From positions 1 to 64,000 of the IMG/VR virus record IMGVR_UViG_3300035180_002210: a stretch of 64,000 bases of DNA, one strand, 5' to 3'. The translations under genes were made by a program, and so were the position numbers. Origin of the DNA: a virus. A model generated the notes under the pieces. It saw nothing but the letters and a program-made list of their open reading frames with translations, made no database searches and was not told the origin of the DNA. Positions 25,645-49,158 of the stretch are shown piece after piece. Within the stretch, counting starts at the first letter, position 1, and each line of letters opens with the position of its first letter.

Positions 25645-25883
25645 ACGTAGATACGGTCCCGATACTTGCAACCATTATTCTTATTGCGACAGCAGCCACG
25701 TTTATACTTGGAATAGGCGCCTATGTTATTCACGGCAGGAAAACGAAGCTGCCATTCACCCACTATGAGAAAGACATTCTGGAAAAGAAAATCCAGAACA
25801 TTCTTTATACCGGCAATAATAAATACCGGACCGAAGAGCTTATAAAATTAATCGGCGAAGAAGTCAGAAAAGCAAAGAAATGA
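25641..25883 (+). CDS. Small membrane protein
   Basis: N-terminal transmembrane helix; overlaps both neighbours. Confidence 0.6.
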   Translation: MNVDTVPILATIILIATAATFILGIGAYVIHGRKTKLPFTHYEKDILEKKIQNILYTGNNKYRTEELIKLIGEEVRKAKK

Positions 25884-28800
25884 AATTCGTAGTTAAATAT
25901 CCGGACTATGAAGGCGGCTTCATTTACAAAGCCGTTGAAGGGTATAATGTTGTTACCAGGGACAATGACCTACATATCATTGACTCCCGGCCCATAAATA
26001 TGCTCAGGAAGGGATTAGACACCCACCGGGGTAAGATTTTACGCTATGACGATAGTACGGTAGAGGTTTTGACAGATCAGGGCGTAAGGACAGCCGACAG
26101 AGAATTATTTAACCGAGTTCTGATTCATAAGTCTATTGCCACCCAGGAACGGCAGGCAGCGGACGAAATTTGGCAGCGAGGCGGCCTGATTAAATCAGTT
26201 CGTAATATGATGACGGTAAAGCCCCCAAAGGTAAAGGACAATACTGTTAAACCGCCATCATCGGGCGGCCTGGCATGGAATGCGAAGGGCGGGCAGAAAC
26301 CCGATCATAAATACATCGAGCGCAGGCCATCACCCACAAGGCCGGATGAATGGGTTTATTTATACCAGCTTCCTAATGGTGAGAAGAAATGGCATGATGA
26401 GAGCGGCCAGGAAATAAGCGAACAGGACGCAAACTCCGCAGCGCAGAACGAGCCGTCAGAAGGCAATTTAACCGGGTATAAGGAAGGTTCGTTCGTTAAG
26501 GTAAACAGCAGAACCGCCAGAGTGAGCGGCGTAGCTGATAATGTAATTTCGGTTCAGTATGATGACGGCAGTGAGGAAATACTTTCTTCCTTCCAGTTGA
26601 ATCCGAAGTTGCAGAAAGTTGGAGCAAACTATTTTGATCCGCAGTCACAACAGAATTATGCAGTTGAAACGATAGGGGACAATGTATTTTTAGGCAGGAG
26701 CCAGAGCGGAGAACTCAGGGCTTTTTTGAAACGGAAGATTTTCAAGCTCAGTGACGAGCAGATACACCCTAAAACAAAGTCACGGCTGGACCCGAACCAC
26801 TACACCCACGACAGCGTTTACAAAACTTATGCTTCTCATTCCCAGGCGCACGGCTATGATGAAATGAGCGACGATGGTTTGAACTATGCAAAAACCACAC
26901 CGGTTGCAGGCGGACAGTGGACTATAAACCGCGAATATGATCCGGCTACAAAGGAATTTACCGTGAGTGTAAACGGGAAAAAGGATTTCAAAATTGACTA
27001 TGAGGGCAAGAACCTTGAAGTTATAGACGCGACGGACACGGACATTATTGCCAAGGACGAAACCGGCGGGATCTGGAATGTTGATAAACGCCTGTACGGC
27101 GATTATTTACGGAAACAGGGGTTGAAGATCCCCGCAGCGGGTGACAATTCAGGGTTGAGCGAAACAGACCAGATATTGAAACACGTTACGGACACCGGCA
27201 GCCAGGGAGATAAAGCAATTTCAAACGCCACCGGCATTCCGTTAAACCGGGTGAAAAAATACCTTGCAGACCTATTGATCGACGGGAAGCTCCGGCACCG
27301 GAACGGGGAGTATTCGACGAAAGAGAAACCGAAAGGACGATGGGTAGCTGATCAGAAGGCGCCAATCGTCAGCGCAGAGGAGCGGGCCAAGGGTGAGCAG
27401 GAGCGGTTGTCCAGGATTAACGATAAGAATGTTGCCAAAAATTCAGATGAGTATAAGACCGGCACTTCTTTATTGGAGAAGGAAGGGTTTAATCTTAACC
27501 CGAATAATGAATTTTACGCATCGAAGCGGGTACGCGCGAACGGCTTAGATTTTGACATCGAGGCCAAGTATAACATGCAAACCGGATTGTGGGAAACCCA
27601 AGTTTCTAACGGCCATTACAAGGAACTGCAAATAGGCAGCAATCCGGATGAAAAATTCAAGATAGCCGATATCACCGGTGACACCGTCAGGTACTATGAC
27701 CATAACGGAAAAATCAATTCAGTTGATTTGAAAGAGCTTGAAGCGATAAACGGCAGAAATGTATTTGAGCCTACCAAGGCGCAGAATGCCAGCCAGAATA
27801 TTGCTATGGGTGATCAGACGGAGATTGTATATGCCAATGGTGAAAAGCACAAGGCAAACTACGCGGTAGTTGAGCTTGACGATATTACCGCCAGCCACGA
27901 CGAGCGGACATTCCTTCCAAACAAGAACTATCCGCAGATGGACGGCCAGAGCACGAACGACCGGGATTATACCAAGAATCTGGACGATCAGCGCATGGTT
28001 CAAAAGGTTGAACAGAACTGGGATAACCGGACTATCAACAACAGCCAGCAGGCGGACCAACATATTATTATTTCACCGGAAAACTTTGTTGTTTCCGGGA
28101 ATAATAGGACGATGAGTGCGAAGTTAGCCAGAGAGAGTAACCCGAAGGCTTGGGAAGCGTTCAAAGAAAAGATGATAGCCGACGCCAGTTATTACGGGCT
28201 GGATCCGGAAGCCATAAAAGGGATGAAGCACCCGTTTTTTGTGAAGATTGACGCCGATACGCCGAAGGATGAGAACGGGAAATACGTGTACCGGAAATCG
28301 GAGCTTGCGAAATTCAATGCCGATGATAAGAAGTCCAAGACCGAAGAAGAAGAGGCCATGACCTACGGGGACGCGATTCAGGGCCGCCCGGAGATCATGG
28401 AGGTACTTGCAGACGCCATGAAGGATAAGGAAACACTTAGCGATATTTTGAACAGCAAAGCGGTTGATACGCAGAAGGCGTTCAGGGATGCCCTATTCCA
28501 ATCCGGGGTAATGCCGCAGCAGGCAGCGAAAAAGTATTTTAATCCGGACGGCAGCTTAACGGATAACGGTAAAATTCTCGTTCGCAGCGTACTCAAAGGG
28601 ACATTCCTCAGCCCGGACACGTATGAACTTTCCACGTCAGAAGGTATGAAAACCTTCGGTGACGCCATCATTGATAATGTTGGAGCGAACTCTATAAACG
28701 CCAGCCTGCACCCTGAATGGAGCCTGCAGAACTACATTAATGATTCAATACGACTTGAAGGGAAATATCAGTACAGCGGGGACTACAAGAAGAGCGGCAG

Positions 28801-30265
28801 CCCGTTTGAGCAGATGTTACGCATGCGGAATATGTTTGATGCACCGCACGACCGCCGGACCGTAGCTTTGAATCTGCTTGCTAAGAAGGGGAAGGAAGTT
28901 TACGGGAAAATTCTGAAAGATTATAACCAGACGGCCAGCACCGAGCAGACCAACAACATGGATAGCATGTTTGGTGAGAACATTACACCCGAAAACCTGT
29001 TTGAATCCGCGGTGATCGACGGGGAGTATAAGGGTAAACCGATATTTACACCGGAGGACCGGAAACTGCTGGATGAATTCAAATTTGAAACCCAGCCGAG
29101 CAAAGGCGGGAAATGGCAGAAACCGAAAGATACGTCAGCGGTTGATAAGGCGTTCAATGAAGCGACCGGGCAGCAGGAGGAAACGCAGCAGGTAGAGAAG
29201 TCGATTGATACCAGTCATAACGCACTTCTCCCGTCAAAGAAGAATCCGCGGGTGAGCCGGTGGCAGAGGATTGAATCAGCAAGTGCAGAATATCAAATTG
29301 GTGATTTTGGACCTATCTATCATCAGTTCAAGAAGAGATCAAAAGAAGCCATTCAGTTCCTTGTTGAAAAGAAGGACGGAGAGGCAATAGGCGCATTATA
29401 TCATCCAGCCATAGGCGATATTGATTTGGTTTGGGGTAAAGAAGGGACTGGAAATAATGATGGATACGGGCTTGCGAAAATTGTTAAATACCATCCGGAA
29501 GTAGTTGAAAATCTTCAGGGAATATTGGAATCTATGCCAATTAAGAGTAAAGGTAAAAATAGAATTCGATTAGAAGATAACAACCATGAAGCGGCTGTGA
29601 GTTTAGAATGGTATGGTAAGGCGAAGACCTGGTTGTTAACCGAGTACCAAAAACAAAAAGCCGCCCGAAGTATGAACGTGGGCGGCGAATCTCAGTTGAG
29701 ACCAGATGAAACGACTACTTCATCTGTAAATCCAGTAAGCAATATAGTGAATGCAGGTGATGAAAGTCAAGAGATTAACAAAGGGATGAACGCAGTAGAT
29801 TTCGCGCTGAAATATCACAAAGACCAGAAATATAACGGTCAGCCGTATGTAGAAGCGCATTTGCAGCCGGTATTTGAAATGAGTAAAACACTTTGGACAG
29901 CCAGCGACAGGAAATTAGACTTTGAAACCTTGGGGAAGGCGGCCTTCCTTCACGATGTAATGGAGGACACCGATGCGACCTATGATCAGGTGAAAGAGCT
30001 TTTCGGACAGGACGCCGCGGATGCCTGCCAGCTGCTTGATACTACTAATAAGACCAAGGACGAGTATTACGCGGGAATAGCTACTTCTCCGTTAGCCAAG
30101 TTAATAAAGGCGGCAGACCGGCTTGTAAATCTGAAATCGCTTGCAGCTCACCCGGACGTTGACTGCGCAGCCTATCTTAAAAATAAATACCGGAATGATC
30201 TTGCATACTATGAGAAGTACGACATTTACCCGGACCTGATTAAACAGGCAGTAGACGAATTATAA
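25880..30265 (+). CDS. Polyvalent protein 1: DdrB-like ParB domain, PBECR-like RNase domain, HD (RelA/SpoT-type) hydrolase
   Basis: YAVVELDDITASHD...RDY...VVSGNNRTM (ParB-like, ~27850-28340); IGDIDLVWG...GYGLAKI...H...WLLT (PBECR-like, ~29300-29650); H..Q...PY..H...LHDVMEDT...KAADRLVNL (HD, ~29790-30260). Confidence 0.8.
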   Translation: MKFVVKYPDYEGGFIYKAVEGYNVVTRDNDLHIIDSRPINMLRKGLDTHRGKILRYDDSTVEVLTDQGVRTADRELFNRVLIHKSIATQERQAADEIWQRGGLIKSVRNMMTVKPPKVKDNTVKPPSSGGLAWNAKGGQKPDHKYIERRPSPTRPDEWVYLYQLPNGEKKWHDESGQEISEQDANSAAQNEPSEGNLTGYKEGSFVKVNSRTARVSGVADNVISVQYDDGSEEILSSFQLNPKLQKVGANYFDPQSQQNYAVETIGDNVFLGRSQSGELRAFLKRKIFKLSDEQIHPKTKSRLDPNHYTHDSVYKTYASHSQAHGYDEMSDDGLNYAKTTPVAGGQWTINREYDPATKEFTVSVNGKKDFKIDYEGKNLEVIDATDTDIIAKDETGGIWNVDKRLYGDYLRKQGLKIPAAGDNSGLSETDQILKHVTDTGSQGDKAISNATGIPLNRVKKYLADLLIDGKLRHRNGEYSTKEKPKGRWVADQKAPIVSAEERAKGEQERLSRINDKNVAKNSDEYKTGTSLLEKEGFNLNPNNEFYASKRVRANGLDFDIEAKYNMQTGLWETQVSNGHYKELQIGSNPDEKFKIADITGDTVRYYDHNGKINSVDLKELEAINGRNVFEPTKAQNASQNIAMGDQTEIVYANGEKHKANYAVVELDDITASHDERTFLPNKNYPQMDGQSTNDRDYTKNLDDQRMVQKVEQNWDNRTINNSQQADQHIIISPENFVVSGNNRTMSAKLARESNPKAWEAFKEKMIADASYYGLDPEAIKGMKHPFFVKIDADTPKDENGKYVYRKSELAKFNADDKKSKTEEEEAMTYGDAIQGRPEIMEVLADAMKDKETLSDILNSKAVDTQKAFRDALFQSGVMPQQAAKKYFNPDGSLTDNGKILVRSVLKGTFLSPDTYELSTSEGMKTFGDAIIDNVGANSINASLHPEWSLQNYINDSIRLEGKYQYSGDYKKSGSPFEQMLRMRNMFDAPHDRRTVALNLLAKKGKEVYGKILKDYNQTASTEQTNNMDSMFGENITPENLFESAVIDGEYKGKPIFTPEDRKLLDEFKFETQPSKGGKWQKPKDTSAVDKAFNEATGQQEETQQVEKSIDTSHNALLPSKKNPRVSRWQRIESASAEYQIGDFGPIYHQFKKRSKEAIQFLVEKKDGEAIGALYHPAIGDIDLVWGKEGTGNNDGYGLAKIVKYHPEVVENLQGILESMPIKSKGKNRIRLEDNNHEAAVSLEWYGKAKTWLLTEYQKQKAARSMNVGGESQLRPDETTTSSVNPVSNIVNAGDESQEINKGMNAVDFALKYHKDQKYNGQPYVEAHLQPVFEMSKTLWTASDRKLDFETLGKAAFLHDVMEDTDATYDQVKELFGQDAADACQLLDTTNKTKDEYYAGIATSPLAKLIKAADRLVNLKSLAAHPDVDCAAYLKNKYRNDLAYYEKYDIYPDLIKQAVDEL
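29649..29735 (-). ncRNA. Candidate ~85-nt structured antisense RNA nested in polyvalent gene 1
   Basis: 8-bp hairpin at 29703-29726; terminator stem GCCGCCC/GGGCGGC at 29660-29686 followed by TTTTTGTTTTT on the minus strand; own promoter. Confidence 0.65.
29741..29770 (-). promoter_or_regulatory. Antisense sigma70 promoter inside the coding sequence
   Basis: TTGACT-18 nt-TATATT on the minus strand. Confidence 0.65.
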
Positions 30266-30299
30266 CAAATAACAGCATATATCAGTTAACAGGCGAAGC

Positions 30300-33200
30300 A
30301 TGGATAATCTTGATGATAAATTGAAGGCGGACAAAAACTTTAAGCTACAAGGACGTAAAAGCTTTCAGGGCCTTGATATTGCGGTAGAGAACCGGCCCGG
30401 CAGCATACGCAGCGGGCTTGACAATGACGGGGAGGAATGGGAAACCCGTATGTTTTATGAATATGGATATATCCGCGGCACGCTTGGAGTTGACGGCGAG
30501 CAGGTAGATTGCTATGTGGGTAAAAACGCCGACAGCCAAAAGGTTTTTATCATCCATCAGAAGAATCCGGAAACCGGCAAGTATGATGAGGATAAAGTTA
30601 TGCTTGGGTTCACAGATAAAACACACGCCAGGGACGCCTATTTGGCACACTACGACTCGCATAAGTTCCTTGGTGAAATAACTGAAATGACCATCGACGA
30701 ATTAAAAGAGAAATTGAAAACCAGGAAGGGTAAAATGATTAAGAGCGTATCAATTTTCGGTAAAAAAGTATTGCAGGCGTTCGAGGATATTTTTAAGTCA
30801 GTGAAAGTCCGGGATCTATTGACTATGAATATGTTTGACGCCGCGAATCCGGATGATGAGGTGACAGAGGGTAAAACCGTAGTAAAAAACGGAAAGACTT
30901 ATGAATACCGCCGGAGCCAGAAAAACCCGGGGGTACGCAGATTGTTTTCCACCGAGCAGGACGAACCGGCGCAGCCGGATTTATTCCAGACCGCTCCAAA
31001 GATAGCAGGGCCTACACCGAAGCAGGCAGCGGCCTTGGGTGAGCATGAGCCAGTAGACCAGGCAGCCATGAAGGAGGCCACAAAGAGAACTAAATTATTT
31101 GGCCAGCAAGTAAGTTTATTCGATCAGCAGGAAGAGCCGAAAACTGCAAAAAGCCTTGTAAAAATAACTAATAAAATAACCGGTGAATCTGCAAAACCGG
31201 ATGAAAAAATAACTGACAAGATACCGGAAGAGGAACACCCCGAGACAATAGGTGATGATCTGTTCTCCCAGCCAGCACCCAGCCCGAAAAAGAAAGAGGA
31301 TGAAGAAAACCCGACAATGGCGTTTGGAGCGGAGGCTATTGATAAGAACGTCGTGAAGAAACGGCAGGAAATAAATGCCAAAGCGCTTGAACTTCTTAAA
31401 ACAAAGAAACCTGAAGAAATGACAATGGATGATAAAATAATCCTTGCTCAGTATTCAGGCCGCGGCGGATTGGGCGGAAACACTTTTGACGATATCAGTT
31501 TGAACGAATATTACACCAGGACGCAGGAAGCACAGTTTATTTGGGATATGTTAGGGAAGTTTGGCTTCAAAGGCGGACCGGTACTGGAACCGAGTTCCGG
31601 AGTTGGCGTATTTATCCATACCGCGCCAAAGGACACCATAGTTGACGGCGTAGAGCTTGATAAGACGAGCAGCGCTATTGCTTCCATACTTCACGGGCAA
31701 TTCCACAACATAACGAACCAGAGTTTTGAGCAACATATAAAAGGAAGCGACGGCGGAAAATATGCAGCGGTAGTAGGAAACCCGCCATTCGGGCCGCGCG
31801 GAATGACCTCAGTTGACGATCCGGAAAAGATAGACTTGAACACCTGCCAGGAATATTTCCTTGACCGGGGTATTGACGAACTTGAAGAAGGCGGGTTATT
31901 GGGAATGATTGTTCCCACGGGTATCATGGATAACCAGGTGAATGAATGGCGGCTTTCTCTCAATAAAAAGGCAGACTTTTTAGGCGCAATCAGGATGCCT
32001 ACCGGAGTATTTAAGCATGCAAAGGCTCAGGTAACAACGGATATTGTATTTTTCCGTAAAAGGGATGATGCAGTACGGGACTATCTTGAAAACGTTCCTA
32101 AAGAGGATTTGAAGGGCTTATACGACGCTCAAATTCTTGACGCGGAGTTTATTGCCGGTAACTATTTTGAGAAGAACCCGCAGTACGCCCTTGGAACAAA
32201 GAAGCGCGGGCAATGGGAAGGACAGAGCATTTGGACCGGTGACATAAGCCGGGGTGATCTGGATGAAGTTGGAGCATTACTGAAATTTACGGATCGGGAC
32301 GCGGAATATCAGAAGCTTGGAATCCTCATTGATCGACTGCCGGCAAAAGAGCTTCATGTTGGAGATACCAAAACATTCAACGGGCGCACCTACCGATTGA
32401 ACGAAAACCACCGATGGGAAAGGGTTGATGAAGCGGAGCTGGGTAAAGAATCCCTGCCAAAAGAGCTGCAGGAGAAGCTTGGAATAAAAACAAAAGCAGA
32501 ATTTCAGGCCTTGCAGCGGGACGTAGCGAAAAAGCTTGAACTCACCCGCGAGCAGTTAAATCTTCTGGATGATAAGGTTTTGTCATCGGAGCTGGAAGCG
32601 TACAATGACAAAAACGACTTCCGGGCGGAAATGCTGAAGCACGCTACTTTGTTAGGGCTGGCAGTTAAAAAGTTTCAGATTGATTTACGAAGCGGGGCCA
32701 TTGAAGGAAGCGACGCACAAAAAGAAGCAGCTAAGCTTGCAGGCTTGCTCAATCAGTTCCATGATAAATACGGACACCCGATTAATGATTTGAAACTGAA
32801 ACGGTACTTAGGGCGCACAACCGGAAACCCTATTCTTTATTTGGCCGGGTCCTTTAACGAGGACGGCGGGTTAAGCGCAATTTTTGACGATCCACTGGCT
32901 TACTACGCAGTATACAGGACAAACTACGAAGTGGGTGAGCTTGACAGCAAGAGCATACCGAAAATTTTACAATATCTGGTTGATAACGGGCTTGACACTT
33001 CTTTCGAGTCTATACAGTCCATGTACAGCGGCGGCACCATCGAAGAAAATGAGCTTATCCGTGATGAGAATGTTTTTATTGACGAGAACGGCGGGTATAG
33101 CCCAACGCAGGAGGTTTGTGTAGGTACGGTTTATAATAAACTGGATGCCTGGACAAAAATGCGAAAAGACATCAGCGAAAAATTGTCAACTCCGGCAGGG

Positions 33201-37764: not shown

Positions 37765-37769
37765 TATTA

Positions 37770-38695: not shown

Positions 38696-38716
38696 AAAGA
38701 CAATTCATTTTTTAAC

Positions 38717-38770
38717 AAAGGCCTCCCCACCTGCAAAGGCATAGGTACGTAAAGCGGGCGGCCTTTTTTT
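38717..38770 (+). terminator. Intrinsic terminator-like structure
   Basis: AAAGGCC...GGCCTTTTTTT closing stem with U-tract. Confidence 0.55.
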
Positions 38771-38831
38771 ATTTCTGCCAGTCATCCCCCTTGTCAATCC
38801 GAATCTACAACTCCCCCGTACTTAAAGTAAT

Positions 38832-38877
38832 TAGTGCAAAAAACAGACTAAATAATGATTCCTAAACGGCTTAGTTT
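38832..38877 (+). promoter_or_regulatory. Late promoter motif copy (upstream of protease and capsid)
   Basis: TAGTGCAAAAAACAGACTAAA with TAGTTT 40 nt after the motif start. Confidence 0.7.
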
Positions 38878-38903
38878 CACGCTATATGAAGAAACTATTT
38901 TAA

Positions 38904-40397: not shown

Positions 40398-40466
40398 GCA
40401 AACAAGTTTCACACGAATTATAATTAACAAATAGAAACTTAAACTAATTAATTACGGAGTTTAATC

Positions 40467-41879
40467 ATGGATCAGGATATCCTTTCCTTCGGGCCCAGCA
40501 GCAATCCGGAAATTGCCGCTTTACAGAAAGCCCTGACGGTCGGTTACGACCACGCAATAACCGATCAGACCGGTTTTGGAGCTACCAGGCTCCAATCCAT
40601 CCAAAATACCCTTGTATGGGCGATTGAGGATGAAACCCAGTCGAGATTCTGGATCTCGCTGCGGAAAACAAAAGCGAAATCCTTAATTGAGGAATACGCC
40701 AAATTGAATTACATCGGCGATGCTTCGTTCTACGCTGAGGGTGGAATACCCGAAGAGTACAATGAAGATCTGTCAAGAGACTTCGAGCCCGTCAAATTTG
40801 TTGGCGCGGTTGGAACAGTCCCTTTGACTATCGACGTTGTTGATTCAATCACCGATAACGAATTATTGGTGATGAAAGCAAAAGCCACGGCTATTGTAAG
40901 AACCTGCAATCTGAAAACCATCTTCGGCAATTCAAACAACATTCCTTTGGAATGGAACGGGCTGGTAGAGCAGTTTTACCGCAAGGTAAAGAACCCGACG
41001 CAGAACGTTATTGACTGCCGCGGACAGGTACTTGACATCAACAACATGGCCGAAGCTGCTAAGATAATCGCCTATAACTACGGCGACAGAAACAATTTGA
41101 AATTTTGGATGAGCAACGGCGCGTTTACGAACTACGCCAAAGAGCTGATCAAGAACAAAACCTATTTTGTAAACGGGCGTCAGATCAATGAAATTGTTGC
41201 CGTACCTAAAACCATTGAAATTGGTGATAACGGTAAGGGAACGATTGAAACCGATCTCCACTTCCAGTTCAGAGGCCAGACGAACATTAACGACTTATGG
41301 CCGCGCCTGAACTCAAACAAGAGTGACTTTGCAGCCACAACAGCAAAATGCCCGGCAACGCTTTCCGGCGGTACCGCAACGGCTACCGTTGTTGCTGATC
41401 CACACAGCAAGCTTGACGGCGGCGTATATGACTATTGCTTTATTCCGGTTAACCAGTATGGCGCCGGCAAAGGCTTTGAAGTCCTGAATATCTCTGTTTC
41501 CACAGGACATAACGTAACCTTCGCGCTTAGCGACAACGGATCGGCACCCGGTTATGAAGCGACCTGCTTTGAGGTTTATAGAAAAAACACTGCACAGACA
41601 AACCTTATTGACTACCGCTACATGGCAACATTCAAAGCCAGTGCACCCAATAAAGTTGATGACGGTTCAGCCATCCCGGGAACTGAAATTGCAATTTTAG
41701 CAGACTGGAACCCCGATCAGGTGTTTGACTTCCGCCAATTGCTCCCCATGGTCCGTATGGACCTGGCACGGGTGAAGGATTCAAAACAGTGGTTACAGAA
41801 ATTATACGGAACACCTTTCCTCAAAAACGCAAACAAGGTTGTTCTGTTCACGAACGTCGGCAGCACGCCTTTATCATAA
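40467..41879 (+). CDS. Major capsid protein (A511/Twort-like)
   Basis: QKALTVGY...Q.G.GA.R.QS; EEY...F..EG; FG.S...EWNGL; NVIDCRG; QLLPMVRMDLA...LYG.P.L. Confidence 0.88.
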   Translation: MDQDILSFGPSSNPEIAALQKALTVGYDHAITDQTGFGATRLQSIQNTLVWAIEDETQSRFWISLRKTKAKSLIEEYAKLNYIGDASFYAEGGIPEEYNEDLSRDFEPVKFVGAVGTVPLTIDVVDSITDNELLVMKAKATAIVRTCNLKTIFGNSNNIPLEWNGLVEQFYRKVKNPTQNVIDCRGQVLDINNMAEAAKIIAYNYGDRNNLKFWMSNGAFTNYAKELIKNKTYFVNGRQINEIVAVPKTIEIGDNGKGTIETDLHFQFRGQTNINDLWPRLNSNKSDFAATTAKCPATLSGGTATATVVADPHSKLDGGVYDYCFIPVNQYGAGKGFEVLNISVSTGHNVTFALSDNGSAPGYEATCFEVYRKNTAQTNLIDYRYMATFKASAPNKVDDGSAIPGTEIAILADWNPDQVFDFRQLLPMVRMDLARVKDSKQWLQKLYGTPFLKNANKVVLFTNVGSTPLS

Positions 41880-41901
41880 TTGCTCTACTGCTGTCCGGTT
41901 G

Positions 41902-41938
41902 GTTGCGGAGTCCTCTGAAAATAGGCTCCGCAGCTTTT
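41902..41938 (+). terminator. Intrinsic terminator after the capsid gene
   Basis: GTTGCGGAG(T)CCT / AGGCTCCGCAGC stem followed by TTTT. Confidence 0.7.
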
Positions 41939-42143
41939 AATTAGTCATTTACACCGTTTTACCGGTTCTATGTAGCAGGGCAGGCCGGAAACCGGCGCGA
42001 TACGAAGCTTGAACTGACGGTTTACACCTGGAAGCGAAAGTACAGATAATTCACTCAGCCTATGACGGGCAAAATTTACCCCTTCCCCTTTCTTCGCGGA
42101 GAGGGGAAGGCCAATATTTAATTTAATTAATCAGGAAGCAGTT

Positions 42144-42446
42144 ATGATAGTTAAAAACCCGGCCCTTGCAAACAAAACACTGATTGTTCACGAAGAAGTG
42201 CATCCGTCGAACAAAATTACTCTCGATCATGAAGGTAAAGTAGAATTAACCCATGATCAGGCAACAGCCCTTTTAACCGTGCCGGGATTTACCGAGCATG
42301 TAGAGGAAAAGGAGCAGGAACAGAAGGTTCCCCAGGAACCCAAAACACCGGCAGAAGCGAAAGCGGCTGCAGCAGCAAAAGGCGGCAAAAAAGGGAAGGC
42401 GACAGACGAACCAAAAACACCGGCAGAAGAAACCGTACAAGAGTAA
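42144..42446 (+). CDS. Small head-associated hypothetical protein
   Basis: Follows the capsid gene; duplicated EPKTPAE. Confidence 0.7.
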   Translation: MIVKNPALANKTLIVHEEVHPSNKITLDHEGKVELTHDQATALLTVPGFTEHVEEKEQEQKVPQEPKTPAEAKAAAAAKGGKKGKATDEPKTPAEETVQE

Positions 42447-42488
42447 ACAGCCCTATGTTTCAATAACCCAGCTAAACTATGCAGAGCC

Positions 42489-43655
42489 ATGATAAAAAAA
42501 CTTTTATGCGGATCCGCGCAAACACTTTTGCTCGATTGGACCAATGTTGTAAACCTTACTAACTTCCTCACTACCGACGAAGGCGCAATACCTATTACCG
42601 TTGACGGAGAGGAAATGTTAGTTTCGCCTTTGGTTGCCAAATGGGAGATATATTTCAATCTCTTTGACGAGGACGGGCAGGCAGTAACCGATGCAGCGGG
42701 GAATCCGATCAAGGCGATCAAGTTTGACTTTGACACCGACAAAAATCAATTCTCGAAATCAATTACGATAAATGAATCGACACCGAACCAGTATGTACGG
42801 TTGTATGTCTATTCATCGGACGTTGATATTGCGGACGGGGCCCAGCCGGAGGATTATAAGCTTGAAAAACTTGAAGTTGCGGCAATGGGTACTGAATTGG
42901 TACCGGTTAGTTATTTCATTGACTTCATATTGAGCCCGGAAACGAAGCTGGACCCCGCATACGCGGAGGCGGTTGCTTCATACGCGAAGAATAACCGACC
43001 GGGAATCAAATCATTTTTACGCAGCGCAGAATCGCGCCTGGAGAGCAAGACAAAGTTGTTTTTCCAGGAGCGGATTATTACCGAGCAGAGAGATTATTTT
43101 TTCGATCAGTACACAATCCACTTATGGCAGTTTGTTGTTGGCAGTCCGCCGATTAACGCCATTACCGATTATAAACTTCAATTTGCGAACCAGCAGATTG
43201 CAGATATAAACCCGAAATTATGCACTTATGACCGAATGATGGGCATTATTGAATTCCTTCCTTATCCGGCAGGCGAAAGTTTAGCGCTATACTCCATGCT
43301 TTTGACCAACATGAGCGCAATGGCCGTGACTGTATTGAACGATTCGGCATTGAGCCGGATCCCTAATATGTTCGTTTGCAGTTACCGAACCGGACTTGTT
43401 TTCCCGGGTTGTGACGAAGGCGAGAAGGAGAGCATACGGCAGGCCATTTGTAAGAAGGCGTTCAAAGCTTCCATTCCAATAATTGATCCGGGTATTCGCC
43501 AGACGTCGAGGACGGAAGGGATAGACGGGACTTCCTCTTCCCGTAATTATGGCGGGTATGATAAGCTGCTTGAGCGGATAGACAAAGAGGAAGATGAGTT
43601 CGTGTTTGACCTGATGAAAAAATACGGGAAACTTGCTGAAATGGTGGTTGTATAA
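42489..43655 (+). CDS. Head-tail adaptor-like protein
   Basis: Position; SAE..LE...L...EQRDY; P..F..SY.TG; S...GIDG.S.S pattern. Confidence 0.6.
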   Translation: MIKKLLCGSAQTLLLDWTNVVNLTNFLTTDEGAIPITVDGEEMLVSPLVAKWEIYFNLFDEDGQAVTDAAGNPIKAIKFDFDTDKNQFSKSITINESTPNQYVRLYVYSSDVDIADGAQPEDYKLEKLEVAAMGTELVPVSYFIDFILSPETKLDPAYAEAVASYAKNNRPGIKSFLRSAESRLESKTKLFFQERIITEQRDYFFDQYTIHLWQFVVGSPPINAITDYKLQFANQQIADINPKLCTYDRMMGIIEFLPYPAGESLALYSMLLTNMSAMAVTVLNDSALSRIPNMFVCSYRTGLVFPGCDEGEKESIRQAICKKAFKASIPIIDPGIRQTSRTEGIDGTSSSRNYGGYDKLLERIDKEEDEFVFDLMKKYGKLAEMVVV

Positions 43656-43927
43656 TGAAACTTTTTGGTAAAAGCATCGGCCAGGAACACGAAGCGCAGC
43701 CGGAAGTAAAAAGGCTGGCTGAAAAGGAAGAAGTAACCAGGACGGCTAAACCGCACTTATACAGGCGGAAAAGCGAGATAGAGCGGTTGACCGAGAAAGA
43801 AAAGAAAATGGCTGCCAAAGAAGGCAATGAGCATTCAGGTACGTTCGCGAAATTCAAAGCGGGTAAGATCAAAACGCAGCAGGACCTTTTGAAGAAAGAA
43901 AAAGCCGGTCAGGAGCCGGTCCAATGA
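43655..43927 (+). CDS. Small charged protein with LFGK|S leader, probable head-internal protein
   Basis: Starts MKLFGKS, the motif also found in polyvalent protein 3. Confidence 0.65.
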   Translation: MKLFGKSIGQEHEAQPEVKRLAEKEEVTRTAKPHLYRRKSEIERLTEKEKKMAAKEGNEHSGTFAKFKAGKIKTQQDLLKKEKAGQEPVQ

Positions 43928-44111
43928 AATTATAATTAACAGGATCGTTATGAAAAAAATATTTCTTATTCTCGTTTTATTGGATCTTCCTGCTTTCGGG
44001 CAGATATTTACCTATCTGAAGGCCAAAGAGAGTTTATAATAATTTAATAACGAAGTGAGAGAACATGACAGCACCGGCTTATAAATTGAATATTTCGTCA
44101 CGGTTACTAAA

Positions 44112-44516
44112 ATGCAAGAAATAATATTTGATATGGAACATTATGCTACGTCAATAATTGGCGGACTTGTCGGCGTTATCACCGTAATTATAGGCTTTGT
44201 GAGCCGTGACTTTAACGAACGACTAAAATTAGTTGATAAACGGTCGCAGGAAATTGAGACTAACTATCTTTCAAGGTTCGCTGATATAAAAGACCGTATT
44301 TCCGAAACTACACTGTCCCTAAGCACGGAAATATACGAAACAAAACACGAAATATTAAACGCTATGATGAAATTTACTGAGGCAAGTGCTAAAGTCCAGG
44401 AAGTTAACAGAGATAGGTATGCTGACAAAGCACAAGTGGATAAAGACCTGCAAGGCTTAAACGAGCGTATTCACGAGAATAAAACAGACATTCAAAAATT
44501 ATCAGAAAGGCTATAA
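44112..44516 (+). CDS. Transmembrane plus coiled-coil protein of the lysis cassette
   Basis: One transmembrane helix then coiled coil; precedes the holin. Confidence 0.6.
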   Translation: MQEIIFDMEHYATSIIGGLVGVITVIIGFVSRDFNERLKLVDKRSQEIETNYLSRFADIKDRISETTLSLSTEIYETKHEILNAMMKFTEASAKVQEVNRDRYADKAQVDKDLQGLNERIHENKTDIQKLSERL

Positions 44517-44517
44517 G

Positions 44518-44769
44518 ATGAACGCAAAAGTAAAAGACCTGTATATGTATGTTTTGGGCGCAATTGTAGTGCTTGGAGCATTTATTATCGTAGGTATGAT
44601 GATTTACCATGAAGTGCCCGCGGGCTCAAAAGACACGATTAATATTGCAATCGGAATTCTTCTCGGCCTGGCAGGTGCCGTTGTTCAATACTTTTATGGC
44701 AGTTCCAAAAGCAGTAGTGACAAAAACGATTTGCTGGCTGGTAAAGTACCTGAAGAAAAGACTGAATAA
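44518..44769 (+). CDS. Holin-like protein
   Basis: Two transmembrane helices and YFYGSSKSS.DK motif; coupled to the endolysin. Confidence 0.75.
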   Translation: MNAKVKDLYMYVLGAIVVLGAFIIVGMMIYHEVPAGSKDTINIAIGILLGLAGAVVQYFYGSSKSSSDKNDLLAGKVPEEKTE

Positions 44770-45335
44770 TGACGATCTATGAACTGAAACAGATTGCGCC
44801 AAACGCTCACTCTCCGGAAGTATTTCTACCTATTCTCGAAGCATCGTTTGATAAGTATGGAATAAATACTCCGGAACGTCAGGCTTGTTTTATTGCTCAG
44901 GTACTTCACGAATCAGGCGAGTTCCGGTACACCAAAGAAATTGCATCCGGTAAAGAGTATGAAGGGCGTACAGATTTAGGGAACACGGTTGCCGGTGACG
45001 GTGTCCGGTATAAAGGCCGTGGCGCAATACAGGTAACAGGAAGAGCAAATTATTATGCGTGTTCCATGTATTTGTTTGGTGATGACAGGTTGGTGCAACA
45101 TCCGGAATTACTTGAACAGCCTGAGTACGCAATCGCTTCCGCTTGTTGGTTCTGGAACTCTCGTAAACTATCTGACATTGCAGATGTTCCCGAAGGATGG
45201 ACACACACTTGGAAGGGTAACGTTTACGATCACTTCCAATGGATCACAATTCGCATAAATGGCGGACTTAACGGTTATAGCCGGAGATTACAGTATTATA
45301 CCAAAGCGAAGGCGGTATTAAAAAATGCTGCGTAA
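44769..45335 (+). CDS. Endolysin, glycoside hydrolase family 19
   Basis: FIAQVLHESGEFRY.KE, YEGR.DLGN, YKGRG.IQVTGR.NY and RINGGLNG motifs. Confidence 0.92.
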   Translation: MTIYELKQIAPNAHSPEVFLPILEASFDKYGINTPERQACFIAQVLHESGEFRYTKEIASGKEYEGRTDLGNTVAGDGVRYKGRGAIQVTGRANYYACSMYLFGDDRLVQHPELLEQPEYAIASACWFWNSRKLSDIADVPEGWTHTWKGNVYDHFQWITIRINGGLNGYSRRLQYYTKAKAVLKNAA

Positions 45336-45352
45336 CATAATTTACATTTAAC

Positions 45353-46036
45353 ATGCCACTACGCATAACGGATCCCAATTTTACCGATATTATGACCATC
45401 TACGGGTTGGACGCATGGTATTATCATGCGCGGCTTTGCAGTTGTGTAGGCGCTAATAACGGAGTTCCGGATTCAAGTGATGATTGTGAAATGGGATTCA
45501 GGTACAGCGCACCGGAGAAGGTCCGCCTGCAGAGAACGCAGACTACCAAGAAAACGCTTAACACCCCATCCGGAGTAATACCGGACGGGGCCATCACCCT
45601 GACAGTTCCTAAATACTGGAAGAAGAAATTACAGAATGCCTGGGTGACTGCTGCTCATGGTGACGTTTATTCATTGATTGGTAAATCACAGGTAGCAAGG
45701 GATATTTTGAAACGCGGGGTACGCGACCGGATATTCGCGTTTGATATACAGAAAATCCTATCGGTAGCGATAAAAGATACGTTTTATATACAAGGGACTG
45801 ATTTTACCCTGCAAGACCGGACAATAGTCTGGGCGGAGGATAAGGGCCCGGAGGACGGAGCCTTTTATTCGGTTGAGTTTTTATGCAACCAGCAGTACCG
45901 GCAATATGACACGGACGCCTTCGACCGCGGTGGTGACGGCGATGATTTGCCAAAGAGAATTAATGCAGTGATCCGGCAGTACGTAAATCCGGATGATAAC
46001 CCGCTTGACGCGGTAGACACCAAGGAGAATATCTAA
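45353..46036 (+). CDS. Head closure / neck protein
   Basis: A.LCSC...C..G..Y pattern as in Twort-like neck proteins; position. Confidence 0.55.
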   Translation: MPLRITDPNFTDIMTIYGLDAWYYHARLCSCVGANNGVPDSSDDCEMGFRYSAPEKVRLQRTQTTKKTLNTPSGVIPDGAITLTVPKYWKKKLQNAWVTAAHGDVYSLIGKSQVARDILKRGVRDRIFAFDIQKILSVAIKDTFYIQGTDFTLQDRTIVWAEDKGPEDGAFYSVEFLCNQQYRQYDTDAFDRGGDGDDLPKRINAVIRQYVNPDDNPLDAVDTKENI

Positions 46037-49000
46037 TGCAACTATTCAGTAAGGCTATCCAGAACCAGTTTAAGCAGCTCGATCTATTTCACCAGCAAAC
46101 GTCGTTATTCGATCCGCAGCCAGGGCAGGAGAAGGAATTTGCTGAAGGTGACCGGCGGAAGCTTCAAATGGCGAAGAATGGGAAGTTACGTTGGATGAAC
46201 GCGGACGCCGATTCAATGGCCGCAGACCTGAATAAGAAATTTACGGACTACGTAGGCGCGCTGGATGAAACGGAGTTTTGCCTTACAGCCAGACAGTACC
46301 GGGCATATAAAGGGCTGGAGTTTTCCGGCGGGACAACCAAGATACAGAGCCCGGCAGACGCAGCGTATTTGTTTAAGCAGCTCAGGGAAGAAGCAATTGA
46401 ACATGCTTTTGCGGTACATGTGAATAAGGATGGGGATGCGGTAGTACAGCATTTAGGGACAGGGAAGTTTGATGAATCGGTTGTTGACAGGCAAGCACTT
46501 ATATCAATGGCAAAAGACTTCGAATCGAAGGAAATCTATTTTGTTCATAATCACCCCAGCGGGAATTTACAACCGAGCCGTGATGACGCCTATGTATTGG
46601 GGCTGATGCAGAGCGAATTTTCGGGCACCGATACCACGCTGAAGGGTATTATTGTTGATACTTTAGAGAATAAGTTCACTGAGTTCAATCCTCAACAAGG
46701 CTTTACAACAGATTTGATAGCGGAGGCCCCAGAGCAGGAAAGGAGTTATCCCGTACTTGCTTTTTCAAAACAATATTTCTACGCCGATATCTCAATTAAT
46801 AAAAAAATACTCCACCCCGATGATGTAGCGGGGTATATCCAGGCAAGCAGGTTCAGCAGCGGAGAGGTGTACCAATTATTGACGCTGAATATTGCGAATA
46901 AGGTTATTGGGCGCTTTAATCTAACCAAAATGAAATATAGCTATGACCAGGCGAGCCTTGACGAAATAGCCTGGTTAACACTTCATTCCGGAGGCAGTGG
47001 CTGCATATTAATGAGCGGTGAAGAACGACTGCCGGGTGAAGCGCTAAGAGATAAATTAAAGCATTATAGCGTAAATTTACTCGATTATATACGCATATCG
47101 CCAGAAAAAAGAAAATTCACGAGCATGGAGGCAAACGGCTTCTCTTATGATATACCGGCAGGGAATGACAGCCCGACCGGGCAGGATTATTCGAATGCGG
47201 CGGAGCCAGCTACATCCTATAATACCACCAGGAAGGGATATGCTAAATTTGATGCAAACACGGCCAGCCCAGAGGAGCTAAGAAAAATCCCAGTTGAGGA
47301 CCTTACGTTCAGCGATAAGAAAAAGCTTTATCCCCGATTAATAGAAGCATACAAAAAAGCTAAAGAAGAGCTTAGTGCCTTATGGAAAAATCAGGGGAAA
47401 GGCGGCGAATGGTTTATCCCGGAAGCAGCAACATTTTTGCCGGCAAAATTTTTCCATTATCCGGTGAGCAAAGCGGAGAATAAGGAATTGTATGATAAAA
47501 TTCAGGCTGCCAAGGGGAGATATGAGGCTTTGAAGTCTGTTTATGATAAAATATATGACAATTTACTTGTTGAGATTGACGATAAAGGGAAAATTTCTGT
47601 TAATTGTGATAACGAGTTTGATTGCGGCAGTTACGAAAAGGGTGTTGCCTTTTTGCAAAAGCTCGAACCATCACTGTATGAAGCTTTTATGAAGGATAAG
47701 AGCAGACCATCCACGGGACTATTCGGGAAAAGTGTAGTTATATTCGGGAAATCGTTAAAACCTACGATGCCATCTGTTAGTAAAGCACCGGCCACCCAAC
47801 CGGGACAGGAGAAGCCCGGCCACAAATATGTGAAGCGTGAACGGGATCAGAAACACCCCGGGAAATACATTTATTATTATAAAATGCCGAACGGGCAGAT
47901 TGAGGCGAGCAATGACGCCAACGGCCCGGATAAATCACCGGCGGCACCGGATAATGCAGTACCAGGCAATACCGCGCATGATACACAGGCAGAAAACTTT
48001 ACTCAGGACCAAGGCGACGGCCAGCAGCAAACACAGAACAATGATCAGCAGCAGGGAGCGGCGCAGGATCCGGCAGCAGCAGCGGAAGCAAAGAAGAATG
48101 CCGATGATCCGGACTATGTTGACTACGCCAGAATCAAAAAGGTTTATGGCCTACGCCAGCCGGAGATTCAGGTAATTGAAAACCTTGCAACAGACTACAT
48201 GCGAAAGGCGAAATTCCAGAAAGGAAGATTCCTTGAGGATGTTGATGCTATTTGTGAGGAAGGCGGGATAAAAGGAGTTTTGCCGAGCATTCGCTTTGGT
48301 GAGTTCGCCGTAAAGGGCAAAGGGAGTATTTTTGACAAAGCGCTGAGGAATATTGCCAAGGGAAGGCCGGAAAAGAACTATGAGTTTTCGGATATCCTAC
48401 GGACAACGATTGTGATTAACAGCCCGAAGCAGGCAAAGAAGCTGAGAAGTTTGCTGGAAAAGAAAGGGTATGAATTTTTAGAAGATGAAAATTTGTACGA
48501 TAGTACCACACCCGGATATAAACATATTGCCTGGAAGGTCAGGCGGGGCAAGGACGATCCGTTGGTGAAAGAAATTCTACTAATGCGGCCTAACATGCTG
48601 GAAGCAAAATTCGGGCTGGGACACGGGCTTTATGACGTTGAGAAGCATATTATTAAACTTATGCCGAAGATTGAAAGGCACAAAGACCTTGCAGGGTTTC
48701 TAACCGGGGTGAAAGAAATTTTAGGTTCGCACATGAGCCAGTTTTATGAAGACGCATATTACCGGGATTTAGAGGAAGAGGGCGGAGCTGCGCTTGATGA
48801 TCATGCCGGTTCAACTGTGAAAGAACCATCTTCGCGTTCTTCATATTCGACAGAGACGGACCCGAGTGAAACGAACGCTACAAGCAATTCTTCGAGTTTG
48901 CCTTCTGCGGCTAAAGACTTATCGAGCAGCACAATGACATCACTGATGGGCTTTTTGAATGACATGTGGCAGCCGATTTCAGCTAATTTATCTACTTCTT

Positions 49001-49158
49001 CAGGAGTGAGTCCGAGGCGCTCTGCCAAGGCAGCAAAGATAGATTCTATTTTCTCTTTCATCGTTGAACCATTGGGTAAGTTGCATAAAAAATACAGTCA
49101 GAATATAATCAATAAGAGTACCAGATTCAAGCGGTTCTTTAGTACCAAGGTGAAATAA
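46036..49158 (+). CDS. Polyvalent protein 3: JAB/RadC-like domains and RelA/SpoT-like nucleotidyltransferase
   Basis: E...FVHNHPSG.LQPS.DD (intact JAB) followed by a degenerate copy; VK...SIFDK...SDILRTTI...GYKH...EILL...GH.LYD (RelA/SpoT-like, ~48300-48770). Confidence 0.75.
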   Translation: MQLFSKAIQNQFKQLDLFHQQTSLFDPQPGQEKEFAEGDRRKLQMAKNGKLRWMNADADSMAADLNKKFTDYVGALDETEFCLTARQYRAYKGLEFSGGTTKIQSPADAAYLFKQLREEAIEHAFAVHVNKDGDAVVQHLGTGKFDESVVDRQALISMAKDFESKEIYFVHNHPSGNLQPSRDDAYVLGLMQSEFSGTDTTLKGIIVDTLENKFTEFNPQQGFTTDLIAEAPEQERSYPVLAFSKQYFYADISINKKILHPDDVAGYIQASRFSSGEVYQLLTLNIANKVIGRFNLTKMKYSYDQASLDEIAWLTLHSGGSGCILMSGEERLPGEALRDKLKHYSVNLLDYIRISPEKRKFTSMEANGFSYDIPAGNDSPTGQDYSNAAEPATSYNTTRKGYAKFDANTASPEELRKIPVEDLTFSDKKKLYPRLIEAYKKAKEELSALWKNQGKGGEWFIPEAATFLPAKFFHYPVSKAENKELYDKIQAAKGRYEALKSVYDKIYDNLLVEIDDKGKISVNCDNEFDCGSYEKGVAFLQKLEPSLYEAFMKDKSRPSTGLFGKSVVIFGKSLKPTMPSVSKAPATQPGQEKPGHKYVKRERDQKHPGKYIYYYKMPNGQIEASNDANGPDKSPAAPDNAVPGNTAHDTQAENFTQDQGDGQQQTQNNDQQQGAAQDPAAAAEAKKNADDPDYVDYARIKKVYGLRQPEIQVIENLATDYMRKAKFQKGRFLEDVDAICEEGGIKGVLPSIRFGEFAVKGKGSIFDKALRNIAKGRPEKNYEFSDILRTTIVINSPKQAKKLRSLLEKKGYEFLEDENLYDSTTPGYKHIAWKVRRGKDDPLVKEILLMRPNMLEAKFGLGHGLYDVEKHIIKLMPKIERHKDLAGFLTGVKEILGSHMSQFYEDAYYRDLEEEGGAALDDHAGSTVKEPSSRSSYSTETDPSETNATSNSSSLPSAAKDLSSSTMTSLMGFLNDMWQPISANLSTSSGVSPRRSAKAAKIDSIFSFIVEPLGKLHKKYSQNIINKSTRFKRFFSTKVK
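48801..49061 (-). CDS. 86-aa acidic protein nested antisense in the 3' end of polyvalent gene 3
   Basis: Natural amphipathic sequence (MKEKIESIFAALAERLGLTPEEVDKLAE...), while the sense frame here reads as a Ser-rich shadow; has its own promoter. Confidence 0.7.
   Translation of the reverse strand: MKEKIESIFAALAERLGLTPEEVDKLAEIGCHMSFKKPISDVIVLLDKSLAAEGKLEELLVAFVSLGSVSVEYEEREDGSFTVEPA
49102..49130 (-). promoter_or_regulatory. Antisense sigma70 promoter inside the coding sequence
   Basis: TTGAAT-17 nt-TATATT, about 40 nt upstream of ATG 49061. Confidence 0.7.

Follow-up and report, generated by a model that had tools for sequence, protein, structure and literature searches.

Candidate minus-strand genes nested behind effector domains in polyvalent virion genes of a temperate phage

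The IMG/VR virus record IMGVR_UViG_3300035180_002210 is 72,034 bases long, and the stretch analysed here, referred to as the window, is its first 64 kb (positions 1 to 64,000). Two of the giant polyvalent protein genes on the plus strand of the window each contain a small minus-strand unit with a promoter-like site of its own, located directly behind an enzymatic effector domain. Behind the RNase-like domain PBECR1 the unit is a predicted antisense small RNA (sRNA) of approximately 85 nucleotides (nt), and behind a domain with a small alarmone synthetase fold it is an open reading frame (ORF) for an acidic helical protein of 86 amino acids (aa). The element behind PBECR1 recurs in many phage lineages and very probably represents a real antisense gene family, as judged from its conservation, promoter and covarying stems. 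Taken over the relatives of both, the nested units look like real genes rather than products of chance. A reading of the DNA made from the letters alone (the sequence-only reading) had proposed that each of two toxin-like domains travels as a cassette with its own overprinted antidote, and this interpretation is partly supported by our results.

The first site lies in gene 25880 and has the following features, given in window coordinates.

25880..30265, plus strand: polyvalent virion protein gene 1 (1461 aa), with ddrB-ParB, PBECR1 RNase-like and HD_4 phosphohydrolase domains
29393..29662, plus strand: PBECR1 coding region (aa 1172-1261, by Pfam), ending in WLLTEYQK
29647..29734, minus strand: predicted antisense sRNA of ~85 nt, with hairpin A at 29726-29703, hairpin B at 29702-29689, hairpin C at 29686-29660 and a U-tract at 29659-29647
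29741..29770, minus strand: promoter-like site, with -35 TTGACT at 29770-29765, an 18-nt spacer and -10 TATATT at 29746-29741
29792..30214, plus strand: HD_4-type (RelA/SpoT-hydrolase-like) phosphohydrolase, aa 1305-1382 by HD_4 and aa 1305-1445 by PHROG 990

The PBECR-like RNase named in the sequence-only reading was recovered by Pfam as PBECR1 (PF18809) at aa 1172-1261, with 36.3 bits against a cut-off of 27.6 (E = 8.5e-9) over profile positions 1-103 of 104. This domain shares 50-62% identity with the PBECR1 domains of many polyvalent proteins, and many of the closest protein relatives are named from Bacteroidota. The other Pfam matches of the gene are ddrB-ParB (E = 8.8e-12) and HD_4 (E = 8.7e-5, below its curated cut-off), and the gene matches PHROG 990 with an E-value of 2.6e-24. 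Both promoter-like sites, TTGACT-18-TATATT at 29770-29741 and TTGAAT-17-TATATT at 49130-49102, are present on the minus strand exactly as claimed. At the first of them, the -10 element plus the next two bases is TATATTGC, which fits TAnnTTGY rather than TAnnTTTG. Its offset from the PBECR1 end, +88..+117 (-10 at +88 and -35 at +117), matches that found in 18 of 25 other lineages. The minus strand from 29734 to 29645 folds as three hairpins followed by UUUUUGUUUUU, with a minimum free energy of -29.8 kcal/mol (z = -3.47); none of 200 shuffles was as stable, and the structured, terminator-ended RNA of the sequence-only reading is thus confirmed at the level of prediction. The stem of the terminator hairpin C is GCCGCCC/GGGCGGC, and the U-tract overlaps the QKQK codons at the end of PBECR1.

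The stretch behind PBECR1 had been taken for a low-complexity linker; in the relatives it is a conserved element instead. For this comparison, 80 IMG/VR loci (L009-L088) were fetched out of 265 confirmed to encode the domain. Those with at least 300 nt downstream and less than 30% shared 12-mers gave 24 non-redundant lineages, which together with the window and L048 form a set of 26. Behind WLLTAFEKK, nearly all lineages share the peptide motifs ..(T/R)TD(T/I).. and ..(D/N)DTA(T/R/L)... Synonymous sites inside PBECR1 are saturated, the top codon at conserved residues reaching mostly 31-65% and up to 91% in one column. Directly behind the domain the codons are fixed (GAC in 25/25, ACT in 17/18, GAC in 24/24 and GCT in 24/24) in lineages that span 39%-70% GC content. 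Moreover, GCAAAGATA is read as GCA-AAG-ATA in one subfamily and as (G)GC-AAA-GAT-A in another; because the same nucleotides are kept in two reading frames, protein selection cannot be the cause. An (A/G)TA codon approximately 30 codons past the PBECR1 end is also conserved, even in lineages of 62-67% GC. As a side observation, L026 and L045 read GCAAAGATA (a TATCTTTGC box on the minus strand), at ~90-100 nt past the PBECR1 end, as A-K-I and G-K-D, respectively.

The sequence-only reading had suggested looking for a recurrent minus-strand promoter behind toxin domains in homologues, and for PBECR1 the outcome is positive. The pattern TTGnnn-N16-18-TAnnnT occurs on the minus strand at +85..+138 from the domain end in 19 of the 26 lineages, with one match each and a spacer of mostly 17 nt, compared with 0/26 on the plus strand and 56/729 in other 100-nt windows of the same loci. 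Codon shuffles (n = 500) gave a mean of 3.1 and a maximum of 9. With TAnnTTTG as the second element, the pattern is found in 14/26 lineages against 24/602 background windows. In the excerpted text of PMC9723704, TAnnTTTG and TAnnTTGY are described as -7 boxes of Flavobacterium and are linked to the housekeeping sigma factor (sigma-A) of flavobacteria. Two other candidates in this region were dropped: a plus-strand -35-like ATGACA in the second peptide motif, which has no -10 after it, and programmed frameshifting at the A-rich EKK codons, which was rejected by eye as there is no in-frame X XXY YYZ heptamer.

Hairpin A has the loop motif AGCNGUGYC in 79 of the 80 loci. The stems around it comprise 22 distinct arm pairs, 20 of them with at least 5 consecutive base pairs; in the two exceptions the anchor was placed on an earlier copy of the loop motif. 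Arms of the same lineage pair at 6.0 positions on average versus 1.52 for arms of different lineages. In the MAFFT alignment, all five pairs of hairpin A change on both sides with 100% of cells paired, and the covariation score is 0.363 versus 0.170 in shuffles; the score was reached in 0/500 shuffles, all slid controls were lower, and RNAalifold agrees. Hairpin B is short and variable in the family. Hairpin C abuts a U-rich tract produced by the FEKK codons read in reverse complement, and its stems differ by subfamily: CAGUGUC/GACACUG, AACGUCUG/CAGACGUU, CGUCAG.GUC/GAC.CUGACG, and GCCGCCC/GGGCGGC, the last being that of the window. MAFFT mis-registers this hairpin across subfamilies (pairing reaches only 36% in helix 2 and 62% in helix 3), and the energies of own and chimeric arms were compared instead, giving -11.9 and -8.2 kcal/mol, respectively. 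The short element (A/U)GUGUC is repeated, once in the loop of hairpin A and once in the 5' arm of hairpin C.

The strand of the RNA is indicated by its pairing. G-U pairs make up 44/298 of the hairpin C pairs in the minus-strand fold and 5/265 in the plus-strand fold, and hairpin C is more stable as the minus strand in 20/26 lineages and as the plus strand in 3. Hairpin A on the minus strand has 8 G-U pairs versus 2 A-C. A U-tract follows the hairpin on the minus strand only, and at least 6 T are found within the next 10 nt after hairpin C in 15/26 lineages. The G-U asymmetry, the promoter and the U-tract together place the family RNA on the minus strand. At curated gathering scores, Rfam has no match in the window and 19 loci (126,972 bases, both strands). 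The word "antisense" is absent from the excerpted texts of the 2017 survey of polyvalent proteins (PMC5512222) and of a 2026 bioRxiv preprint that names PBECR, and "linker" is absent from the excerpts of the former. As far as these searches reach, the antisense sRNA family is undescribed.

The window copy lies where the family lies: on the minus strand, with its start ~85-140 nt and its end 0-15 nt away from where the PBECR1 coding region stops, with a promoter of the form TTGnnn-N16-18-TAnnnT (TTGACT-18-TATATT) and three hairpins, the last of which is followed by a U-tract. Its stem C aligns column for column with the CAGUGUC/GACACUG stem of the relatives, and every base is different while the arms are still complementary. 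Based on its position and architecture, we regard the window RNA as a divergent relative of the family, not a proven member. This copy is probably functional. Among PBECR1 relatives with a linker like that of the window, P0011 is the closest, and an IMG/VR scan with it found no relatives.

The second site lies in gene 46036 and has the following features.

46036..49158, plus strand: polyvalent protein gene 3 (1040 aa), with RadC-JAB, an alarmone-synthetase-like domain and a Ser/Thr-rich tail
46345-46596, plus strand: RadC-JAB domain (Pfam)
48070..48780, plus strand: RelA/SpoT-like domain with a small alarmone synthetase fold (AlphaFold2 (AF2) model and Foldseek)
48796..49158, plus strand: sense tail of gene 3 (aa 921-1040), reading across the small minus-strand gene and its promoter
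48801..49061, minus strand: gene for an 86-aa acidic helical protein, stop at 48801-48803, in an antisense frame that shares wobble positions with the sense frame
49102..49130, minus strand: promoter-like site TTGAAT-17-TATATT, ~40 nt upstream of the ATG of the ORF

The last 385 residues of the gene product (48001-49155) were modelled with AF2. The model has a folded core at residues 24-260, with mean predicted local distance difference test (pLDDT) values of 41-89 in 10-residue blocks, and a sense tail that is predicted to be disordered (pLDDT < 50 throughout). Foldseek matched the core to the small alarmone synthetases 8vx3 and 5ded, to CapRel (7ztb), to 6ex0 and to Rel/SpoT proteins with a probability of 1.00 and a TM-score (TMt) of up to 0.70; the match to 8vx3 has an E-value of 1.7e-4 and a TMt of 0.60-0.70. 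No Pfam model, including that of RelA_SpoT, matched the window domain, P0125 or P0126 at E-values up to 5. The RelA/SpoT-like domain assigned to this gene by the sequence-only reading is therefore upheld by a fold match without a Pfam match, and according to the predicted model it is a small alarmone synthetase by fold. Gene 46036 overlaps both of its neighbours, its start with the stop of the gene before it and its stop with the start, at 49158, of the gene after it. In its product, a phage protein, a RadC-JAB domain is joined to the RelA/SpoT-like one; in the excerpted text of the 2017 survey, RadC was found only in proteins of conjugative elements (PMC5512222).

Relatives of the giant genes are carried by one metagenome-assembled genome (MAG) titled Ignavibacteriales, on the contigs L002 (G001:C150) and L007 (G001:C98). 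Between them, the two contigs carry syntenic counterparts of genes 45353, 46036 and 49158 together with a relative of the HD domain, and L002 and L007 are probably one related prophage. In the L002 relative of gene 46036, an LPD3 domain replaces the N-terminal half. The 86-aa minus-strand ORF was confirmed at 48801-49061 and is kept in L002 with the same start and 59% identity. Both hexamers of its promoter-like site are identical there, while 4 of the 17 spacer bases differ; seen with this single relative, the conservation of the hexamers is suggestive. Shared wobble positions couple the sense and antisense proteins, so that conservation in L002 alone cannot show selection on the ORF. Between 49060 and 49158, a segment that spans the promoter and the junction with the next gene, the codons of the window and L002 are identical at 15/21 identical residues, compared with 45% over the whole alignment. 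The sense frame is open across the small gene in the window, L002 and P0126.

Stronger evidence for the small gene comes from its protein relatives. An exhaustive phmmer search against 1.84 billion representatives found three proteins of 80-83 aa that align end to end with the 86-aa protein (E = 5.1e-5 to 8.8e-4), and a profile search added four more small-protein relatives (profile E = 1e-21 to 1e-32), one of them on a 5.9-Mb contig. The family (P0127, P0128, P0130, P0131 and P0142-P0146; 80-86 aa, the relatives of the ORF being 80-85 aa) aligns end to end almost without gaps and shares the motifs LAExG...F and G(A/S)(I/V/L). In the wobble-aligned frame, an Asp-Tyr or Asn-Tyr pair makes TAA or TAG unavoidable on the opposite strand. 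Such a pair is found at residue 72-73 in P0128, P0130 and P0142-P0146, and three of these have a second at residue 16; in 7 of the 8 relatives tested, the opposite frame was closed in 100% of re-codings. As the sequences of the relatives force stops in the opposite frame, the family is not a shadow of a Ser-rich sense tail, and from their sequences the relatives of 80-85 aa are free-standing genes elsewhere. In the window and L002 the ORF is not free-standing, as the sense frame spans it entirely; re-coding under the small-protein sequence leaves the sense frame open in 52% (window) and 66% (L002) of cases. The simplest history is that of a small convergent gene behind a synthetase-like gene, with the polyvalent frame later read on to the start of the next gene. 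We consider the 86-aa ORF likely to be functional.

A complex of the synthetase-like domain with the small protein was predicted with a score of 0.57 (runs of 0.57, 0.34 and 0.70) versus 0.01 for the best control, in a range (0.60 or under) where calibration places only 7 of 80 solved complexes plus both of the mismatched pairs that passed; the mark itself was reached by 58/80 solved complexes and 2/110 mismatched pairs. At least 61% of the contacts were shared between runs, and the pLDDT of the partner was at least 77. The model thus gives weak support to a contact between the small protein and the synthetase-like domain. Pfam and PHROGs returned nothing for the 86-aa ORF and no known antitoxin family matched, the protein atlas held no usable match for the small protein, tblastn of the small protein and its relatives found no match in phages or plasmids, and IMG/VR scans with A1, A3 and P0142 found no relatives. 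The only match in the metagenome scan (L006) was spurious and belongs to an oxidoreductase, and a 378-aa repeat protein (P0129) was set aside because the resemblance is at the level of motifs. Separately, a 220-aa protein at L184:1492-2154 (plus strand), directly after a response-regulator/nucleotide-cyclase gene, resembles the small-protein family in its first ~75 residues.

We propose that two polyvalent virion-module genes each nest an independently promoted small minus-strand gene directly behind an enzymatic effector domain. Behind PBECR1, this would be the antisense sRNA gene of ~85 nt, consisting of a promoter, three hairpins and an intrinsic terminator; behind the synthetase-like domain, it would be the gene of the 86-aa acidic helical protein, which the polyvalent frame appears to have overrun in the lineage of the window. 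Both units would be products of the host RNA polymerase, uncoupled from the late operon, and both would restrain the adjacent effector as safety catches in phage-carrying cells. The sRNA could base-pair with the mRNA of the effector, or its conserved loop and the repeated UGUC could engage a factor that acts on the effector mRNA or protein, and the small protein could bind the synthetase-like domain, whereas the packaged effector protein would be delivered without either antidote. What the sequences show is the features themselves, how far they are conserved, the covariation and the strand, while transcription, toxicity and neutralisation are our inference; the reading as a whole, with nested genes that are transcribed by the host and restrain their neighbours, is advanced tentatively, as a possibility that falls somewhat short of probable.

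Several observations weigh against this reading. Within the window, promoter-like sites occur at chance density (29 vs 29.9 and 33 vs 32.3 in dinucleotide shuffles), and the promoter pattern is absent in 7 of the 26 lineages, six of which have 62-70% GC. The loop motif AGCNGTGYC has no match on either strand of the 72-kb genome. The window loop A is UAGUCG, and the window copy lacks both AGCNGUGYC in hairpin A and GUCYGU in hairpin C; with the conserved loop absent, its membership of the family is argued solely from position and architecture. L007, the only HD-domain relative with a different upstream domain, has neither hexamer of the first site. The module is also found behind a GGDEF domain (E = 6.9e-11) at L093:2797-3711 (plus strand) and behind domains without a Pfam match in L115, L118, L121, L130 and L152. 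At the second site, when the sense tail is re-coded synonymously, 48% of the versions for the window and 74% of those for L002 contain an antisense ATG-ORF with 86 codons or more; the openness of the ORF thus follows from the sense peptide, and the 86-aa ORF by itself is uninformative. Changes at wobble positions that affect the antisense protein show no depletion, being 6/15 in the overlap versus 35/83 in the control, with only 15 informative sites. AF2 of the small protein alone gave a pLDDT of 60 and a predicted template modelling score (pTM) of 0.42, and a language model recognised it with a value of 1997, less than the 2300 attained by most known families. In 401 genomes sampled from the phylum of the MAG, distant look-alikes occur by ABC-transporter genes, in a 220-aa fusion and in a prophage-like region, and none was found in this sample beside a synthetase-like gene.

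How closely the RNA module is tied to PBECR1 was assessed by an IMG/VR pattern scan with loop A and the hairpin C motif, which returned 94 stretches; the counts here cover the 80 that were listed. Of these, 29 lie antisense directly behind PBECR1. Among the other 51, most without a stem, eight look genuine; ~42 of the 80 resemble chance hits with neither stem nor PBECR1, and by our estimate many chance matches are to be expected for a pattern of such information content. About 31 of the 38 listed matches judged genuine lie behind PBECR1, including those in L108 and L131, where the domain is divergent and was recognised by Pfam and by eye, respectively. On these sequence counts, the module prefers PBECR1 and is not exclusive to it, and it behaves in polyvalent genes as a mobile junction module would. 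At L093, L115, L118, L121, L130 and L152, the module has the loop AGCUGUGUCA, a covarying stem and a terminator. Against the notion of one cassette per toxin, the module also stands behind GGDEF and other domains, and distant relatives of the small protein are found in non-toxin contexts. The claim that the nested units exceed chance does not hold within the window alone and does hold across relatives, for the first site and more tentatively for the second.

These observations bear on several other explanations. If both units were real and expressed and were not antidotes, the sRNA might regulate the timing or silencing of the late operon, act on host transcripts or simply travel with domain junctions, and the small protein might be an unrelated accessory or regulator. 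We consider this rather unlikely. It would account for a module that follows GGDEF and unclassified domains as well as PBECR1, for a loop that is conserved while the stems vary, which suits recognition of a common partner, and for small-protein relatives in non-toxin contexts; the HD_4 hydrolase-like domain of the phage could itself counter an alarmone synthetase. It fits less well with the concentration of the module directly behind PBECR1 (29 of 80 listed matches, about 31 of 38 genuine ones), with the predicted contact of the small protein and the synthetase, weak as it is (0.57 vs 0.01 in controls), and with the position of both window units exactly at the end of an enzyme domain. A more specific form of the antidote proposal seems unlikely to us: polyvalent genes would carry host-promoter-driven antidotes, with the sRNA as a decoy or inhibitor of PBECR1 (an RNA antitoxin, perhaps a substrate mimic) and the small protein as an overprinted immunity protein, the promoter following the sigma type of the host, so that carriers would be protected and the injected protein would be free of its antidote.

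That the units are by-products, namely chance hexamers in A-rich linker codons, incidental hairpins and an ORF that is the shadow of a Ser/Thr-rich tail poor in Tyr, His and Gln, we hold to be very unlikely. Promoter-like counts equal to those of shuffles, the openness of the ORF given the sense peptide (P = 0.48 for the window and 0.74 for L002), the lack of a selection signal at wobble sites and the low confidence of the isolated small-protein model would all be expected from by-products. They would not be expected to give fixed synonymous sites and the same nucleotides in two frames beyond chance, a promoter pattern in 19/26 lineages at a single offset on a single strand, stem covariation with G-U asymmetry, or small-protein relatives whose opposite frame must hold stops. 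It is also conceivable, and in our judgement highly improbable, that what is conserved behind PBECR1 is a structure of the sense mRNA, for instance one that causes pausing or processing at the domain boundary and aids co-translational folding or domain separation, and that no antisense RNA is made. The location of the element at domain junctions behind several kinds of domain and the (A/G)TA codon conserved ~30 codons past the domain end, even at 62-67% GC, are compatible with a role in the sense mRNA, whereas the G-U counts of hairpin C (44/298 minus, 5/265 plus), its better fold on the minus strand (20/26 vs 3), the 8 G-U versus 2 A-C pairs of hairpin A, the U-tract after the hairpin on the minus strand only and the confinement of TTG-17-TAnnTTTG to the minus strand point to a minus-strand RNA.

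The genome that holds these genes has an integrase gene at 226-1092 (minus strand) and also encodes a large terminase, a portal, a minor head protein, a head protease, a major head protein and an endolysin, which identifies it as that of a tailed temperate phage. Nearly all genes of the window are on the plus strand. Its three giant genes (25880-30265, 30300-37043 and 46036-49158) lie in or adjoin the head module, gene 25880 being flanked by portal and minor head genes on one side and by protease and major head genes on the other. The product of gene 30300-37043 (2247 aa) contains InPase, Eco57I-type methylase and SNF2 helicase domains (Pfam). This domain repertoire (PBECR1, ddrB-ParB, RelA/SpoT, InPase, SNF2 and RadC) and the position in the head module match the polyvalent proteins of Iyer et al. 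(2017), as far as the excerpted text of PMC5512222 goes. The HD_4 domain shares 58% identity with the C-terminal end of a 1651-aa frame on the MAG prophage contig L007, and since relatives occur in an Ignavibacteriales MAG, the host of the phage is probably in the Bacteroidota/Ignavibacteria group. Its DNA is present in microbial-mat and sediment metagenomes. Four DNA runs compared over 29450-49400 are contigs with zero differences at either antisense site; no close DNA relative of gene 25880 or gene 46036 was found in the phage collection searched. Antisense ORFs of 60-257 aa are abundant across the plus-strand genes of the window, and the longest of the region, a 257-aa ORF at 35253-36026 (minus strand), lies within the InPase-methylase-SNF2 gene. 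The phage encodes domains of both the HD_4 type (RelA/SpoT-hydrolase-type, 29792-30214) and the alarmone-synthetase fold (48070-48780), and the former could itself counter the synthetase-like domain or host alarmone defences.

Polyvalent virion proteins are thought to be injected weapons, and we know of no account of how a producing or lysogenic cell tolerates their effectors. Nested genes of the kind proposed here would make a hidden layer of control over such weapons open to experiment. The predicted structured antisense RNA gene at the PBECR1 boundary is conserved in at least 19 distinct phage lineages while hidden inside coding sequence; searches for intergenic RNA motifs would miss such a nested gene, and the family is not in Rfam. 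As most lineages have a promoter that fits the Bacteroidota sigma-A box, the gene is directly testable in phage systems of gut Bacteroides. The second unit, if true, would be among the few well-argued protein genes in a phage that are fully overlapped on the opposite strand, and it would link a new small-protein family to an alarmone-synthetase-like effector.

The nearest known counterparts of the RNA unit are type I toxin-antitoxin systems and cis-antisense RNAs of phages and plasmids, such as hok/sok, lambda OOP and P22 sar. Like them, it is predicted to be a short, structured, terminator-ended RNA with its own promoter, opposite a potentially harmful gene and fully complementary to the mRNA of that gene. 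Here, however, the target would be the interior of a giant multidomain gene whose product is packaged in the virion, not the gene of a small membrane peptide or a regulator; the RNA gene is wholly contained in coding sequence at a domain boundary, and its loop is conserved across phages with diverged stems. In the type III system ToxIN, ToxI is a tandem-repeat RNA encoded on the same strand upstream of toxN and processed by the toxin. The two share an RNase-type protein and a structured RNA with a repeated short element, here (A/U)GUGUC, whereas the RNA described here is antisense and nested, its binding to the protein would be conjectural, and the module also stands behind non-RNase domains. 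For the second unit, the counterparts are the toxSAS proteins (FaRel, PhRel and CapRel) with their antitoxins and Tas1-Tis1, a (p)ppApp-synthetase effector with its immunity protein. These likewise have a domain of the RelA/SpoT homologue (RSH) synthetase fold as the weapon, with a small acidic protein encoded alongside, for which contact is weakly predicted in our case. Unlike them, the small gene of the window is convergent and is overlapped end to end by the frame of the effector itself, the effector is one domain within a virion polyvalent protein and has no Pfam RelA_SpoT match, and the small protein gave no match to known antitoxin families. The phage genes resemble the polyvalent proteins of Iyer et al. 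(2017) in domain repertoire and head-module position, but nested minus-strand genes are outside the description given in the excerpted text, and RadC, specific there to conjugative elements, is here in a phage (PMC5512222). The arrangement thus differs from type I and type III RNA antitoxins, from toxSAS pairs and from effector-immunity pairs in that the small genes are nested in the coding sequence of virion polyvalent proteins.

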